From an uncultured Candidatus Saccharibacteria bacterium (GTDB taxonomy: Bacteria > Patescibacteriota > Minisyncoccia > Phycocordibacterales > CAIRYW01): a stretch of DNA of 64,000 bases. The number at the start of each line of letters is the position of its first letter. The stretch's first letter is position 1. The DNA lies in assembly GCA_964386665.1 (NCBI GenBank), contig CAYLQP010000001.1:48111-112110 (forward strand), in the 5' to 3' direction. Positions 23,743 through 53,019 of the stretch are shown here, in pieces. A program made the translations under genes and the position numbers. The notes under the pieces are model-generated. The model saw nothing but the letters and a program-made list of their open reading frames with translations, did not search any database and had not been told where the DNA came from.

Positions 23743-24354
23743 CTAGTCTGCTTTAGGACTCTTTTTCCCATTCAGAAACTCAAAGATCGCGAGGTCGTAG
23801 CTGCTGGTACGCTCGAACACGTGGATTGCGAGGCGCTCGCGGGTTTCAAACTTCGTTGCGCCACCGTTCGACCGCATTTCTTCGAGTACCACGGCGTAGT
23901 CCGCAGGGTCCGTGACGATGGTCACGGACTGGTAGTTTTTTGACGCAGCACGTAGCATGGCCGGACCACCGACATCAATGTTCTCAATCGCATCCTCCAG
24001 TGTCACGCCATCCTTCGCCACGGTCTGCTCGAAGGGATAGAGGTTTACAATGAGCAGATCAATCGGCAGTACGTCGTGCTCCTTAGCCTGCTCCACGTGT
24101 TGGGCGTTTTCCCGCTGATAGAGTAAGCCGCCATGGACCTTCGGGTGCAGGGTCTTCACCCGACCGTCGAAACATTCTGGGTAGCCGGTGAAATCCGCTA
24201 CTTCGATCACTGGAATACCCAGCTTCCGTATAAATGCCGCGCTGCCGCCCGTGGAGATGATTTCTACTCCCATTGCGTGCAGTCCTTGTACCAAGGTTTC
24301 CAGCCCGTTCTTGTTTGATACCGATATGAGTGCTCGCGTGATTTTTGGGTCCAT
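23743..24354 (-). CDS. purH: stand-alone IMP cyclohydrolase (PurH N-terminal MGS-like domain only), GC-anomalous
   Basis: Strong match to the PurH N-domain (ALISVSNKNGL..STGGSAAFIRKLGIPVIEVADFTGYPECFDGRVKTLHPKVHGGLL..NLYPFEQTV..IENIDVGGPAMLRAASKNY). No AICAR transformylase domain follows. The coding body is about 58% GC against about 38% for its neighbours. The ATG at 24354 (MDPKIT) is preferred over the track start at 24441. Confidence 0.75.
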   Translation of the reverse strand: MDPKITRALISVSNKNGLETLVQGLHAMGVEIISTGGSAAFIRKLGIPVIEVADFTGYPECFDGRVKTLHPKVHGGLLYQRENAQHVEQAKEHDVLPIDLLIVNLYPFEQTVAKDGVTLEDAIENIDVGGPAMLRAASKNYQSVTIVTDPADYAVVLEEMRSNGGATKFETRERLAIHVFERTSSYDLAIFEFLNGKKSPKAD

Positions 24355-24435
24355 TTTCAGGATGTGTTTGATTTGAAGTTTCCCTAACAGATGTGAAAGG
24401 GCGACTATTCCACACATTAACAAATCAGATTTTTT

Positions 24436-24466
24436 TTGCAACTTTTTGAAAAAGGTATGATATAAT
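24436..24466 (+). promoter_or_regulatory. candidate sigma-70 promoter for gap (TTGCAA -35, extended TGaTATAAT -10)
   Basis: TATAAT at 24461-24466 with TG at 24458-24459. The ATG follows at 24475. Confidence 0.35.
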
Positions 24467-48860: not shown

Positions 48861-49748
48861 CTAGTGTTCTTCGTGTTTGTGCGTTGCGCTGGCAAAAAAC
48901 ATAGTTGCGAGCACTGAGATAACAAGCGCTTGAATAAATCCAACAAAGAGTTCAAGACCAAGGAATGGAATAGGAATGATAAATGGTGCCAAGAATGAAA
49001 CAATAAGCATTAATACGCTTCCAGCAAATATGTTCCCAAATAATCGGAAAGTAAGTGAAATAACTCGAGAGATTTCTCCAATAAGCTCAAGAATACCTAC
49101 AAATGAACCCATAGGATTCTTGAAAGGGTTTACAAGGAATTTACCGAGATGGTGTTTTGGACCAATTGTTTTGAATCCGACAATATGTGACCCAAGGACA
49201 ATAATGATTGCAAAGACAAGGGTCATATTGATGTCAGAGTTTACAGTTCTAAAGAGGGGTAAAAACCTTCCGTGAGCTTCTTCTGCGTGTGCCTCCGCTT
49301 CAGTAGATACTTCTTCTGTATGACCTTCGGTTTCTGTGTGTGCTACTGGTTCTGCTTCGAGAGGAGCAGTTTCTTCTGTTTGTGTTGTATGACTTTCTTC
49401 TACAAGATGAGATTTTTCGTTTGAATATACACCGATTGTCTCAACTCCTGGAAGTGTTCCTGCCCAGTTTGAAGTCAAAACATAAAAGAAGATAGTGATA
49501 ACGATAGGAAGGAATTTCCGCACGGTTTCTTTGTTTCCGGCAAATGCAGACATAAAGTCAATAAAGCCAGTCAAAATCCCCTCAAGAGCAAAAGCAAGCT
49601 TACCGTTAGGGTATTTTTTCATATGTCTTCCAACAAACAGTGATGCGCACACAATAAACAAAACGACAAACCAAGAAGTAAAAATGGTGTTTGTGATATG
49701 AAATCCAAAGATATCAAAAAGATGTTCTGCGCCGATTGAAATATGCAT
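48861..49748 (-). CDS. atpB: Fo ATP synthase a subunit with a His/Glu/Thr-rich insertion in a loop
   Basis: Conserved C-terminal helices with the R (LTFRLFGNIFAG). A ~55-aa insertion (SHLVEESHTTQTEETAPLEAEPVAHTETEGHTEEVSTEAEAHAEEAHG) follows the first helical hairpin. Confidence 0.85.
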   Translation of the reverse strand: MHISIGAEHLFDIFGFHITNTIFTSWFVVLFIVCASLFVGRHMKKYPNGKLAFALEGILTGFIDFMSAFAGNKETVRKFLPIVITIFFYVLTSNWAGTLPGVETIGVYSNEKSHLVEESHTTQTEETAPLEAEPVAHTETEGHTEEVSTEAEAHAEEAHGRFLPLFRTVNSDINMTLVFAIIIVLGSHIVGFKTIGPKHHLGKFLVNPFKNPMGSFVGILELIGEISRVISLTFRLFGNIFAGSVLMLIVSFLAPFIIPIPFLGLELFVGFIQALVISVLATMFFASATHKHEEH

Positions 49749-49791: not shown

Positions 49792-49992
49792 TTATGGGTT
49801 AAATTCCTTTATTTTCTTTTTAATTGCGAAGATGGTTGAAATGAGTGAGAGTAAGAGACCTCCGATGATACCAAAGGGTTTTGTATCAAACTTGTGATCA
49901 ACCCAGATGCCTGCAAGTAAACAGATGACAAGAGGGATAACAATAAAAGTTCCCAGTTCATAAGCAAACGATATAAGTTCAGATTTGAACAT
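49792..49992 (-). CDS. atpZ: AtpZ/AtpI-like small membrane protein preceding the atp operon
   Basis: 66 aa from the ATG at 49992 (MFKSE...). Two TM helices with a G.W.D..F.T.P motif typical of ATPase_gene1 family proteins. The track ORF extends to 50079. Confidence 0.5.
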   Translation of the reverse strand: MFKSELISFAYELGTFIVIPLVICLLAGIWVDHKFDTKPFGIIGGLLLSLISTIFAIKKKIKEFNP

Positions 49993-50140
49993 GGTTGATT
50001 GTTTACTGTCTTGTATTTGTGGGTTTTTGTCTTCTTCTGTCACAGGCCACAGTATAGTCAAAAAATGGTATTTTCGCAAATTTAAAGCAAATCAAAGACA
50101 GGGTAGAATGTCCTATTATTGAACCAGGGGTCCAACCCCT

Positions 50141-50164
50141 GGTTGGGGTTTTTGGTAAACGAAC
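50141..50164. repeat. direct repeat copy 1 (GTCCAACCCCTGGTTGGGGTTTTT), left boundary of a GC-rich island
   Basis: Near-identical to 51403-51425. Contains a small ccaacc/ggttgg hairpin. Confidence 0.6.
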
Positions 50165-50234
50165 CTAAATGTAATATTAAAAAAATCCCGCATTCATTAC
50201 TAAAAAACGGGAATTGGAGTTATCACTTTTCTCA

Positions 50235-50420
50235 TCAAGAACTGAAGCGTGGTTTGGACAAAAACCCAGGGTCTTCAGTAGCTAATTGTGCCGCGATGTC
50301 AATCAGTTCCTCAAGGTATTCCTCCAGTGTCATTGGAGGACTCGATTTTGCCGCTTTTTCAGTCAGTACCTCTTTCAGTTCCGGATCGAGTTCCAGAGTA
50401 ATTGTTCTGTTTTTAGACAT
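50235..50420 (-). CDS. ribbon-helix-helix (CopG/Arc/MetJ-like) DNA-binding protein, antitoxin-like
   Basis: 61 aa from the ATG at 50420. MSKNRTITLELDPELKEVLTEKAAK...LEEYLEELIDIAA fits the RHH beta-strand plus two-helix pattern. GC is about 50%. Confidence 0.55.
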   Translation of the reverse strand: MSKNRTITLELDPELKEVLTEKAAKSSPPMTLEEYLEELIDIAAQLATEDPGFLSKPRFSS

Positions 50421-50514
50421 GTTGAGATTTAGTTTGAAACAAAAAAAAGAAGTTGATAAGGCTTTTAGTAACATATTACATAAAATAAAAAAGTCAATAG
50501 TAAATTAGTATTGA

Positions 50515-50543
50515 TTGACGATATATATTGCATATGTTATAAT
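50515..50543 (+). promoter_or_regulatory. near-consensus sigma-70 promoter TTGACG-N17-TATAAT inside the island
   Basis: -35 at 50515-50520 and -10 at 50538-50543, upstream of the 50593 ORF. Confidence 0.5.
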
Positions 50544-50592
50544 GTTTTCTAGATAGATTGTGATGTATGTCATCACCCAATCTGTTTCGTAA

Positions 50593-50943
50593 GTGCTCAA
50601 TGAAGCGCTGGCAGACGGGGTGTCACATACACCACTCCATATGGTCTTTACAGATCCAACAGGTGTCGAACTACCTAAACTGTTCGAGCTTGGCACGGTC
50701 AGGGTTCTCTCAGGGGTCTCTGAAACATTGTCGCAAGAAGAAGTAAAAGAGGTTCTTGCCCAACATCAGTCGGGCGACTGGGGATACCTTTGCCCGGAAG
50801 ATAAGGTGGCAAATGATCTCGCTCTCCAAGAAGAAGGGCAATTGCGCTCGATCTACTACGGGAACGGAGGCACTACCAGGCTCCAAATCATCACCGAGGC
50901 GGATCGATCGGTAACGACCGTTCTTCTCCCGGAGGAATACTGA
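50593..50943 (+). CDS. hypothetical protein (GC-rich island)
   Basis: 116-aa ORF at about 52% GC. It has a conserved-looking C-terminus (ITEADRSVTTVLLPEEY), but I cannot place it in a named family. Confidence 0.5.
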   Translation: MLNEALADGVSHTPLHMVFTDPTGVELPKLFELGTVRVLSGVSETLSQEEVKEVLAQHQSGDWGYLCPEDKVANDLALQEEGQLRSIYYGNGGTTRLQIITEADRSVTTVLLPEEY

Positions 50944-50947
50944 TGCC

Positions 50948-51328
50948 ATGAAGAACCTCGATATCAGCCAGTTGGTGTTGATCGGAAGCGTTGTCTTACT
51001 CTTCCTCGTGATGCTCATCAGGACGAGCATTGAGGCATGGAGAAACAGGAAGACTCCCGCACACAAAGCAGCTCTGCGCAGGCAGAGACAAATCAGACGG
51101 GAGATGCTCGCCAAGCAAGAAGAGCAAATCGCTCAGGAAATGGAAGAGCGGCTCAAAAAGAGCCGCCGGCAAGAGCAGGTAGCACCTCCTCCTGTCACAC
51201 GACCTCCTGATTCTCACGAACTCCTCAGAGAGATTCATCGTCAGGTCCTGGAAGCAGGAATTCGACGGATGTCTCAAAGAAGATCTACCGAGGAAGTTGG
51301 TCGTCGGTTCAAACCGGGTAACTCATAG
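50948..51328 (+). CDS. hypothetical membrane-anchored protein with Arg/Gln/Glu-rich charged region (GC-rich island)
   Basis: 126 aa. One N-terminal TM helix followed by a highly charged helix and a Pro-rich stretch. A hairpin plus T-run terminator follows at ~51340-51375. Confidence 0.45.
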   Translation: MKNLDISQLVLIGSVVLLFLVMLIRTSIEAWRNRKTPAHKAALRRQRQIRREMLAKQEEQIAQEMEERLKKSRRQEQVAPPPVTRPPDSHELLREIHRQVLEAGIRRMSQRRSTEEVGRRFKPGNS

Positions 51329-51402
51329 AGCGATCTGAATAACTACAGCCGTTTCTCCATTCGTGGGGGAACGGTTTTTTAATTTAAAATTTTAAGAAAG
51401 GA

Positions 51403-51425
51403 GTCCAACCCTTGGTTGGGGTTTT
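51403..51425. repeat. direct repeat copy 2 (GTCCAACCCTTGGTTGGGGTTTT), right boundary of the GC-rich island
   Basis: 22/23 identity with 50141-50164. Confidence 0.6.
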
Positions 51426-51473
51426 AAAAAACTGAATTTGTTTTTTCTCTTAAAAATCTGTAATATGTTGCCT

Positions 51474-52166
51474 ATGTTTGCAGTTATATTAGCAGCAGGG
51501 AAAGGAACACGAATGGGGGAACTCTCAAAGGAGACTCCGAAGCCAATGCTTCCGGTGCTTGGGAAGACGCTTTTGGAGCACAAGCTCGATATGTTACCAG
51601 AACAAATTACTGATGTGATTATTGTGGTTGGATACTTAAAAGACAAAATCGTGGAAGTGTTGGGAGACAACTATGGAGGAAGAAAGATTTCTTATGTGAT
51701 CCAAGAAGAACTGAGAGGAACAGCAGATGCGTTGTTTAAATGCAAAGACATACTCAAAGATGAGAAAAAGTTTCTTGTAATGATGGGAGATGATATTTAT
51801 TGCAAAGAAGATATGGAAGAATGTTTGCAATATGATTATTCTATCTTGATCCGTGAGACAGCGAGTCTGAAAGGTAAGGCAAAGGTAATGTTTGATGAGA
51901 GTGGGCATATAAAAGATATTTTAGAAAAGTATCCTACAGAGGAAGCGGGTTTTATTTGTACAGGATTATATACTATTTCTTCAAAAATTTTTGAATATCA
52001 AATGGTGGGTATTCCAGGGGGAGAAGTTGGGTTGCCACAAACGCTTCTTTCAATGAAAAAGGACTTCAATATAAAAGCTGTTCAATCGAGGTTTTGGCTC
52101 CAAATCACTGCTCCAGAAGATTTGGTGATGGCGGAGACGTTTTTGAAGATTGATAAAACAGAGTAG
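51474..52166 (+). CDS. sugar-phosphate nucleotidyltransferase (NTP_transferase family, G1P thymidylyl/uridylyltransferase-like)
   Basis: MFAVILAAGKGTRM N-terminus and DDIY/GTADAL blocks. The track ORF starts at a TTG (51438). The ATGs at 51465 and 51474 are both preceded by a TAATAT -10-like element. Confidence 0.75.
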   Translation: MFAVILAAGKGTRMGELSKETPKPMLPVLGKTLLEHKLDMLPEQITDVIIVVGYLKDKIVEVLGDNYGGRKISYVIQEELRGTADALFKCKDILKDEKKFLVMMGDDIYCKEDMEECLQYDYSILIRETASLKGKAKVMFDESGHIKDILEKYPTEEAGFICTGLYTISSKIFEYQMVGIPGGEVGLPQTLLSMKKDFNIKAVQSRFWLQITAPEDLVMAETFLKIDKTE

Positions 52167-52444
52167 GGAGTAAAGATAAAAGACTAAAAACCAAAGAGGA
52201 GAAGGGGAAAGCGCGCAGGACCAAAGGCCCTGCGCGCTTGAAAATGGTCTGAGAGAGAGGGTGCTGAACAGAGTTATGTGGTTCAAGCACTGGATCACGC
52301 GACTGCGGAGTTGTTATGACCCCTCTCGTCTCTCAGCCATCTGCCGACAACACCTGGCTTCTTCACGGTGCTGAGTATTGAGGGCAGAAAAGAAAAATCT
52401 AAAATAATTTTATTGTTTTTGTATTAAAAGTCAAATCTGTACAA

Positions 52445-52680
52445 AACTGAAAGGTCCCCGCAAGCTGCGCTTGCGGGGACCTTGAAATATTCACCTGAGA
52501 GAGCTGTGCTAGGAGCAAGTTCGCACAGCCTTCAACTTTATCCTGTGTGTCTGGGTCCGCCAGACTTACGGATAAGGGTTTAGGCACTCTCTCAGGCTTA
52601 TTTTGGCCACTACGGAGAAGGTCCAGGAATCCTTCGGGTTCATCCTGGGCATTGTGTGGCGCAAATCAAAGAAATTGACT
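52445..52680 (-). ncRNA. candidate structured ncRNA, paralog 1 (own promoter TTGACT-N16-TAATAT at 52687-52714; terminator hairpin 52453-52479)
   Basis: GC-rich (~55%) and ORF-free. A 10-bp closing helix (cctgagagag/ctctctcagg) encloses internal hairpins. The 5' leader and 3' terminator are conserved with paralog 2, while the core differs. Confidence 0.5.
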
Positions 52681-52725
52681 GACCCTCATATTACTCACAA
52701 TCCTCTTGAAGTCAAATCTGTACAA

Positions 52726-52989
52726 AACTGAAAAGTCCCCCGCAAGCGCAGCTTGCGGGGGACTTTGAAATACCGACCTGGAGGGGTAGCAAGGTGTAGG
52801 GGCACCGAGTAAGGTTCTACACCTCCTCTGACCAACTGTGTGCTCCAGTTGTCCGCGGGACCACAGGTGGTCGTTAAGGGATGCTTCCCTCCAGGTAGTT
52901 TTGCTCACATGTGGCGCAGTTCCAAGTCCGAAGTAGTGTGTGTAACAGCCTTGGAGAACATACGTGAGACAAATCAAAGAAATTGACTG
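52726..52989 (-). ncRNA. candidate structured ncRNA, paralog 2 (promoter TTGACT-N16-TAATAT at 52996-53023 overlapping the cysS stop; terminator hairpin 52734-52762)
   Basis: Same architecture as paralog 1. Its closing helix is acctggaggg/ccctccaggt, which covaries with paralog 1's helix at the equivalent position. Confidence 0.5.
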
Positions 52990-53019
52990 ACTCCCATATT
53001 ACTTATAATCCTCTTGAAG

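Follow-up and report, generated by a model that had tools for sequence, protein, structure and literature searches.

Between the atp operon and a nucleotidyltransferase gene, a 64,000-nucleotide stretch of an uncultured Candidatus Saccharibacteria bacterium (assembly GCA_964386665.1, contig CAYLQP010000001.1, positions 48,111 to 112,110 of the forward strand; hereafter the window, whose own numbering is used throughout) carries a two-gene cassette of foreign origin, ORF2-ORF3. The cassette and a small divergent open reading frame (ORF) that resembles ribbon-helix-helix (RHH) proteins are enclosed by a direct repeat, 25/27 identical between its two copies. The explanation that we favour overall, with a probability of roughly 55%, is that this module is horizontally acquired mobile-element cargo, that the repeat is the scar of its integration and that the module is now non-autonomous. 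The initial annotation of this DNA had described a uniformly GC-rich island of three genes and had taken it for a small integrated element or the remnant of one. Foreign mobile-element DNA and a non-random bracketing repeat are indeed present. The uniformity did not hold up: foreign composition and a GC-rich homologue are confined to the ORF2-ORF3 cassette. No recombinase was found among the neighbouring ORFs scanned. Mobility of the module, past or present, is suggested by the repeat alone.

The composition of the DNA separates the cassette from its surroundings. The GC content is 38.8% for the whole window, 45% for the DNA between the two repeat copies (50153-51402), 52% for ORF2 and ORF3 (50590-51340) and 35% for the 360 bp that contain the RHH-like ORF and its promoter (50153-50512). 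Thus, the 50-52% first given for everything between the copies describes ORF2 and ORF3, and not the left 360 bp. The GC content at third codon positions (GC3) is 0.535 for ORF2 and 0.559 for ORF3, which is 3.5 and 3.9 standard deviations above the value for 48 host genes (0.30 +/- 0.07). For the RHH-like ORF, GC3 is 0.40, or 1.5 standard deviations above the same host genes.

A homologous cassette was found on L023, a metagenome contig with a GC content of 55-60% throughout, where it adjoins a divergent CHC2/DnaG-type primase gene. L023 keeps the promoter position (TTGACA...TACAAT), the leader, ORF2, the 4-nt gap, ORF3 and, with another stem sequence, a terminator at the matching place. DNA homology between the window and L023 spans ~50512-51383, from the promoter region to the terminator, with 71% identity over 803 aligned columns. 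Identity is highest within 50781-51215 (82-87%) and much reduced in the 5' half of ORF2 and at the 3' end of ORF3. Neither the RHH-like ORF nor the repeat is present in L023, and at the DNA level the island as a whole showed no similarity to plasmids and phages. We conclude that L023 is a relative of the donor and not the donor itself. Together, GC3, the L023 homologue and the genetic contexts of the ORF2 family (see below) demonstrate a foreign origin for 50512-51383, and only for this interval; the RHH segment (50153-50512) lies outside that evidence. We consider it very probable that ORF2-ORF3 came horizontally from a mobile element.

Relative to L023, omega is 0.29 for ORF2 and 0.38 for ORF3, indicating that both genes are under purifying selection. 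Synonymous divergence (dS), calculated for 50641-51328 against L023 951-1629, is uneven along the two genes. The 5' half of ORF2 and the 3' end of ORF3 have reached saturation, whereas dS is 0.54 for the 3' half of ORF2 and 0.27 for codons 1-86 of ORF3, a pattern that suggests either a recombinant mosaic or an additional constraint at the nucleotide level over the ORF2/ORF3 junction. The leader hairpin (L023 872-949) has two compensatory pairs and invariant inner arms (CACCC..AUCUG / CAGAC..GGGGUG), and its fold z-scores are -3.0 and -2.7 in the only two sequences available. It might control translation. Two additional reading frames in this DNA were set aside: a conserved upstream ORF in the leader was rejected since the reading frames of the window and L023 differ, and an antisense ORF at 50710-51114 is explained by sense-strand conservation in GC-rich DNA. 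Neither the leader-hairpin pattern nor ORF3 had a match in IMG/VR.

Taken together, the features between the atp genes and the nucleotidyltransferase gene form a compact and insulated module, in which two promoters diverge and a terminator faces outward on each side (Table 1). The near-consensus promoter and the three ORFs described by the initial annotation are all there, with one correction: ORF2 probably starts at the ATG at 50641 rather than at the GTG at 50593, because its homologues and the gene calls place the start there. No tRNA or Rfam family was found at the module site.

Table 1. Coordinates of the features that make up the module, in window numbering.
Feature	Position	Strand	Description
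Direct repeat, copy 1	50126..50152 (core 50130-50152)	+	Within hairpin 50122-50144
Terminator-like hairpin of RHH-like ORF	50179..50212	-	TCCCG...CGGGA, then U7; RNA fold z = -2.6, equalled by 1/200 shuffles
RHH-like ORF, 61 aa	50235..50420	-	Orphan; near-host composition
Promoter-like site for RHH-like ORF	50470..50497	-	TTGACT-16-TATGTT, 9/12; consensus match only
Near-palindrome, 21 bp	50494..50514	.	TCAATAGTAA-A-TTAGTATTGA; 90% complementary; between/overlapping the divergent -35 boxes
Sigma-70 promoter	50515..50543	+	TTGACG-17-TATAAT; 11/12 matches, extended -10 TG
Leader hairpin	50560..50637	+	~20 pairs; leader ~90 nt; ends just before the ORF2 ATG
ORF2, 100 aa	50641..50943	+	Alternative starts GTG 50593 and 50620
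ORF3, 126 aa	50948..51328	+	Begins 4 nt past the ORF2 stop
Intrinsic terminator, strong	51347..51382	+	13-pair stem and T-run; z = -4.3, equalled by 0/200 shuffles
Direct repeat, copy 2	51399..51425 (core 51403-51425)	+	7-pair hairpin; 17 nt past the cassette terminator

The direct repeat

The core of the repeat is GTCCAACCC[C/T]TGGTTGGGGTTTT, and its two copies match at 22/23 positions. This is the identity first reported; the left copy, which had been placed at 50141-50164, was found 11 bases away, at 50130-50152. The match extends to AGG[G/A]GTCCAACCC[C/T]TGGTTGGGGTTTT, 25/27 identical, starting at 50126 and 51399. Shuffles that preserved dinucleotides yielded no such match (0/100). The hairpin ascribed to the repeat is formed by both copies: that of copy 1 has a perfect 10-bp stem and a 3-nt loop and extends beyond the repeat, and that of copy 2 has a stem of 7 pairs.

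As far as could be tested in the 64-kb window, in related loci and in the collections searched, the repeat is not dispersed. No third copy is present in the window, even when 3 mismatches are allowed, and no copies were found in related loci. The 21-nt core had no matches in the GTDB species representatives and none in IMG/VR; a single match in the JGI metagenomes lies inside a coding region of 60% GC and was judged to be due to chance. A dispersed repetitive extragenic palindromic (REP) or terminator-like element, considered at the outset as the explanation that would speak against an insertion, should occur at many unrelated loci, and the repeat has 2 copies in 64 kb. Identity as a DNA uptake sequence or as REP was rejected for the same scarcity of copies.

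Other kinds of recombination site were also examined. A 15/18 AT-rich inverted repeat within the direct repeats was considered as a pair of terminal inverted repeats and turned out to be the tails of the two outward-facing terminators. A dif-like site measures 28 bp, with two 11-bp arms flanking a 6-bp spacer, and the dif core in Proteobacteria, Firmicutes and Actinobacteria is ATAA...TTATG. By inspection only, we rejected a dif/Xer site of the kind used by integrative mobile elements exploiting Xer (IMEX) or by pdif modules, as neither size nor sequence fits and the core is missing. Sites of the attC type are 57-141 bp long and contain four boxes (R''-L''-L'-R'), and the ORF of an integron cassette is promoterless and associated with an integron integrase or array. 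An integron gene cassette was likewise rejected by inspection, given a repeat of 23-27 nt, the promoter that the cassette itself carries and the absence of an integrase. A length of 23-27 bp falls within the range of att cores and also within that of the shortest homology usable by general recombination.

Both copies show a terminator-like pattern on the + strand, consisting of a hairpin followed by a T-run. The copies are nevertheless wrongly placed and oriented for terminating the neighbouring genes. Copy 1 ends 26 nt outside the terminator of the RHH-like ORF and is terminator-like on the + strand, yet both genes that flank it are on the - strand. Copy 2 comes after a terminator that is already strong.

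ORF2, ORF3 and the RHH-like ORF

The product of ORF2 matches 882 protein clusters (~90 residues, E <= 1e-3), which make up a large and unnamed family. The homologues among the matches listed have E-values from 4e-25 to 4e-17 and identities of 45-67%, and the closest, P0002 (67%), is encoded on L023. In an alignment of 119 family members, 17 columns are invariant and all 17 residues are present in the window protein. The family is marked by the motif GDWGxLCxED...IITEADRSVTTVLLPEEY and by an invariant C-terminal motif, ITEADRSVTTVLLPEEY. An AlphaFold2 model built with the family alignment (predicted local distance difference test score (pLDDT) 89.6) has the order beta-alpha-alpha-alpha-beta-beta-beta, and in BFVD this fold matches only 2 uncharacterised phage protein models.

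The genetic contexts of the family are those of conjugative elements. In integrative and conjugative element (ICE) loci, the gene order is TrwC relaxase, ParB_N, (DUF6117), ArdC and ORF2-family gene, with an integrase in two of the loci. The ORF2-family gene overlaps the ardC stop by 4 nt, and the ardC product contains ArdcN and MPTase-PolyVal domains. At one further locus, the neighbours of the ORF2-family gene are genes for type IV secretion and for an Mrr-type nuclease. The family is also present on 169 sequenced plasmid records (72 conjugative, 34 mobilizable), often next to genes for MobC/relaxase, a large ParB, a methyltransferase or a zincin (ArdC-like), and in 5 phage records. In RefSeq/GenBank plasmid records, family proteins of 82-106 residues are annotated as "type I restriction endonuclease subunit M" (for example, NZ_CP150912.1 82692-83012 and CP076121.1 49965-50213); this label looks like a propagated misnomer for an uncharacterised family. 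Our literature search found no named description of the family.

The antirestriction protein ArdC exerts its effect in the recipient cell (PMC7213743), and anti-defence genes are overrepresented in plasmid leading regions (PMC11541004). From this background and the contexts of its family, we infer by analogy that ORF2 may be an accessory establishment or anti-defence factor. Similar to the leading-region and establishment genes described in these studies (PMC7213743, PMC11541004), the ORF2 family sits with ardC, large ParB-like, orphan methyltransferase and MobC/relaxase genes. In contrast to them, the window ORF2 is chromosomal and away from oriT and ardC, has its own sigma-70 promoter and a membrane-protein partner, and belongs to a family that is itself unnamed. 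A wider reading holds that the family consists of establishment or anti-defence proteins working with or parallel to ArdC, and that the Saccharibacteria copy has been domesticated as a stand-alone gene; we offer this tentatively, as possible and rather less than probable. If true, the domesticated ORF2 could protect DNA taken up by a naturally competent epibiont or interfere with a defence system. With its occurrence on at least 169 plasmids and in 882 clusters and its overlap with ardC, the family is a reasonable candidate for anti-defence and establishment screens. The main value of the finding is as a pointer to this large uncharacterised family linked to ardC.

ORF3 encodes a protein with one strongly hydrophobic N-terminal transmembrane helix (residues 6-24), beyond which the sequence is 40% charged and rich in Arg and Lys. 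Among 5.8 billion protein clusters, a single homologue was identified, P0122 (63% identity), whose gene begins 4 nt past that of P0002 on L023. All matches of ORF3 to known families were below threshold, such as GspM with 25 bits against a cut-off of 60 bits. We infer from the sequence that ORF3 is probably a lineage-specific single-pass membrane partner.

The assignment of the 61-aa protein to the CopG/RHH proteins, made in the initial annotation, proved weak. The match to Pfam RHH_1 (PF01402) has an E-value of 0.044 and scores 14.2 bits, under the cut-off of 20.5 bits. Homologue searches of the 5.8e9 clusters and a full HMMER pass over 1.84e9 representatives returned only the window's own protein. 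A single-sequence AlphaFold2 model (pLDDT 78.7) has an extended N-terminus followed by helices at residues 13-25 and 32-49; it is compatible with a ribbon-helix-helix fold and is not proof of one. Comparison with the PDB, by sequence and by fold (Foldseek), gave no match and no RHH protein. Like the CopG/Arc/MetJ repressors (PF01402), the protein as modelled would combine an N-terminal extended segment with two helices, and its gene is divergent from the genes that it could regulate, with a palindrome between the promoters; unlike them, it scores under the Pfam cut-off and has neither a homologue nor a structural match. Judged from its position, the near-palindrome is a candidate operator. Should the 61-aa protein bind DNA as an RHH protein, this palindrome would be the site through which it represses the two divergent promoters.

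The host locus and the origin of the module

The module is flanked on the left by the atp operon (- strand), which includes an AtpI-like gene at 49792-50079, and on the right by the nucleotidyltransferase gene (51474-52166, + strand). Farther neighbours include genes for UvrA, UvrC, a phosphoesterase, HlyD/FtsX/ABC transporter proteins and, by similarity to relatives, CysS. The site is core chromosome. Among the island ORFs and the neighbouring ORFs scanned within ~12 kb, we found no integrase, transposase, recombinase or relaxase.

The nearest relatives of the nucleotidyltransferase, with 69-79% identity, are from Candidatus Saccharibacteria / Patescibacteria metagenome-assembled genomes. These relatives keep the nucleotidyltransferase-CysS pair and differ in the DNA to its left, which contains a divergent gene that is DnaB-like by eye. 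None of their upstream genes occurs anywhere in the window, and the 2.4-10 kb of upstream sequence compared contained no atp operon. The island is not conserved in synteny, in line with the view first taken of it as an insertion: all three of its ORFs are absent from the related Saccharibacteria/Patescibacteria loci. By these sequence comparisons, the island sits at a synteny breakpoint relative to all relatives. Exact-protein look-ups with ORF2, AtpI, AtpE and the nucleotidyltransferase returned only identical, island-bearing or truncated contigs, or nothing.

Independent assemblies of other sequencing runs, taken from Logan, agree with the window at 100% identity. A contig of 5498 bp (L001, run SRR12762304) continues through the atp operon, the island and the nucleotidyltransferase gene and reproduces both junctions, and another (L002, run SRR12762291) covers both repeat copies with their flanks. 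Three contigs, L002, L036 and L037, have ends near the island edges. Two contigs of run SRR12762291 share exactly 30 nt (k-1), 50054-50083, and the contig with the island stops at 51489; one contig of run SRR12762303 stops at 50132, within the hairpin loop of copy 1. These breaks could reflect generic strain-level fragmentation, strain heterogeneity or low coverage, and we do not count them as evidence. They would be of interest if the window, which comes from a metagenome-assembled genome, were an assembly chimera in which a foreign contig had been joined into the genome bin at a shared short repeat, as contigs of two other runs break near the island edges (50054/50083, 50132, 51489). A chimera is, however, very improbable. 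The single L001 contig, spanning the atp operon, island and nucleotidyltransferase gene at 100% identity, argues against it, L002 spans both copies, the repeat of 23-27 nt is shorter than the 31-mer implied by the 30-nt contig overlap, and the RHH segment is AT-rich like the host.

Under the explanation that we favour, ~50512-51383 would have been acquired as a self-contained cassette of promoter, leader hairpin, ORF2, ORF3 and terminator, and its source would be a mobile element from a bacterium with a higher GC content. The natural competence of Saccharibacteria (PMC10633639) provides a route for foreign DNA, and Patescibacteria exchange genes and have acquired small genomic islets by horizontal transfer (PMC12455944). 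The repeat would be the scar left when a circular intermediate recombined with a hairpin sequence in the chromosome through one reciprocal crossover. Such a crossover may have been site-specific or a short-homology integration of the Campbell type, and would have left attL- and attR-like copies. A single-crossover scar fits because the repeat sits just outside both module terminators, and the two mismatches between the copies would fit a crossover in the right half of the repeat. We put the odds that the repeat is an integration scar at about even. Because no recombinase is present, the module would now be a non-autonomous remnant, similar to a cis-mobilizable element (CIME).

Several observations weigh against this explanation. 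A distance of 360 bp separates the left repeat copy from the point where demonstrably foreign DNA begins, and the intervening RHH segment has a host-like composition and no homologue; because of this, the repeat-bounded unit does not coincide with the transferred cassette. Neither an empty site nor an excised or circular form came to light, nor did any cognate element carrying this repeat; the lack of an empty site follows from the loss of synteny in the relatives exactly at the island. The window ORF2 stands alone among housekeeping genes, with no adjoining ardC, relaxase or ParB gene. In addition, no model in Pfam, NCBIfam or PHROGs matches ORF2, and searches of the PDB by sequence, profile and Foldseek returned only non-significant matches. 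Lastly, a second GC-rich gene in the window (23743-24441, - strand; 52% GC, GC3 0.62) lies between gatB and the GAPDH gene and encodes an IMP-cyclohydrolase-like protein with an MGS domain and the N-terminal part of AICARFT_IMPCHas. This gene looks horizontally acquired and has no flanking direct repeats; therefore, the genome takes up foreign genes leaving no such scars.

Some of these points would be accommodated if the cassette had been captured alone, by illegitimate or transformation-mediated recombination, beside a native RHH-like ORF. The hairpins would then be native or locally duplicated sequences and not att sites; they could be insulating or terminator-like elements, or a duplication that arose from break repair at a fragile hairpin. 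Homology to L023 is limited to ~50512-51383 and includes neither the repeat nor the RHH gene, the composition of the RHH segment is close to that of the host, and the other foreign-looking gene of the window has no repeats. Moreover, the synteny breakpoint relative to all relatives suggests rearrangement-prone DNA, and both copies fit the pattern of a hairpin and T-run on the + strand. On the other hand, a 25/27 duplication exactly outside both module terminators is not expected from a simple illegitimate capture, the repeat occurs just twice in 64 kb, and neither copy has the position or orientation to terminate an adjacent gene. The RHH ORF also has no homologue in related genomes. Capture of the cassette alone appears unlikely to us.

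A different role for the hairpins would follow if the repeat were the recognition site of a single-strand-specific enzyme (a relaxase, a HUH Rep/TnpA or an integron-type integrase) and the 1.27-kb unit moved as a single-stranded circle. We consider this improbable: no such enzyme is encoded among the ORFs scanned, the L023 cassette ends without such a hairpin, the pattern is absent from viral and plasmid-type contigs, and the repeat is shorter than attC sites with their four boxes. In its favour, each copy is a hairpin followed by a T-run and, by inspection, GTCCAAC...GTTGGGG resembles the integron attC core pair, with 7/7 positions agreeing with RYYYAAC and 6/7 with GTTRRRY. In addition, the family of the cargo comes from oriT-proximal regions of conjugative elements. 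An addiction module similar to toxin-antitoxin systems, in which an RHH antitoxin or repressor and a RelE-like ORF2 toxin stabilised themselves after insertion, is quite improbable. A small RHH-like ORF does adjoin ORF2, and the order of structural elements in the ORF2 model, together with HigB/RelE as its best PDB matches, brings such toxins to mind. These matches are non-significant, however, with Foldseek E >= 0.18, probability <= 0.23 and TM-scores of 0.3-0.4. The RHH ORF is divergent from ORF2 and does not form with it the co-directional operon of a type II system, nor is it conserved with ORF2 anywhere, and in the ICE loci examined the ORF2-family genes follow ardC and have no antitoxin-like partner immediately upstream.

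Returning to the integration of mobile-element cargo, the closest parallel is the CIME (PMC5704250). The module shares with CIMEs the bracketing direct repeats, cargo derived from conjugative elements and a location in the core chromosome, and it likewise has no integrase or transfer genes. It differs in being only 1.27 kb long and in not being located at a tRNA or another known integration hot spot. Additionally, no cognate ICE or integrative and mobilizable element (IME) with the same att sequence is known, and only part of the repeat-bounded DNA is demonstrably foreign. The horizontally acquired islets of Patescibacteria (PMC12455944) and Saccharibacteria (PMC10633639) resemble the module as GC-deviant foreign cassettes amid the housekeeping genes of a reduced genome; here, in contrast, a 25/27 direct repeat brackets the DNA and the cargo is of the establishment type instead of a metabolic gene. 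The island itself is not a new kind of system, and is an ordinary but clean gene capture. A lesser possibility, beside the wider reading of the ORF2 family, is that the repeat-bounded unit of 1.27 kb represents a minimal mobile cassette of a new type, one that targets hairpins. The locus documents the capture of mobile-element cargo by an ultrasmall Patescibacteria genome, with clear boundaries, a synteny breakpoint and a putative repeat scar, and few such captures in Patescibacteria have been resolved to the base level.

Other features of the window

Between the convergent nucleotidyltransferase and CysS genes lies an 850-bp ORF-free spacer of ~50% GC (52167-53019). The spacer contains three tandem units that resemble structured RNAs, at 52246-52340, 52494-52597 and 52776-52896, with RNAfold z-scores of -3.1, -5.4 and -4.4. 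Each unit is closed by a covarying helix, CUGAG(A/G)...(C/U)CUCAG, and a perfect hairpin of 15-16 bp (AAGGTCCCCGCAAGC / GCTTGCGGGGACCTT) comes before units 2 and 3. In the closest relative, L011, a single unit of this type occupies the corresponding position (z = -5.1), and in L013, L015 and L016 the nucleotidyltransferase and CysS genes abut. The units had no match in Rfam and may represent an undescribed small RNA family of this Saccharibacteria clade.

Within the atp operon, the ATP synthase a subunit (48861-49748) has an acidic insertion of ~45 residues that is rich in His, Thr and Glu (...HTTQTEETAPLEAEPVAHTETEGHTEEVSTEAEAHAEEAHG...). The DNA encoding this insertion contains short internal direct repeats at 49277-49355.

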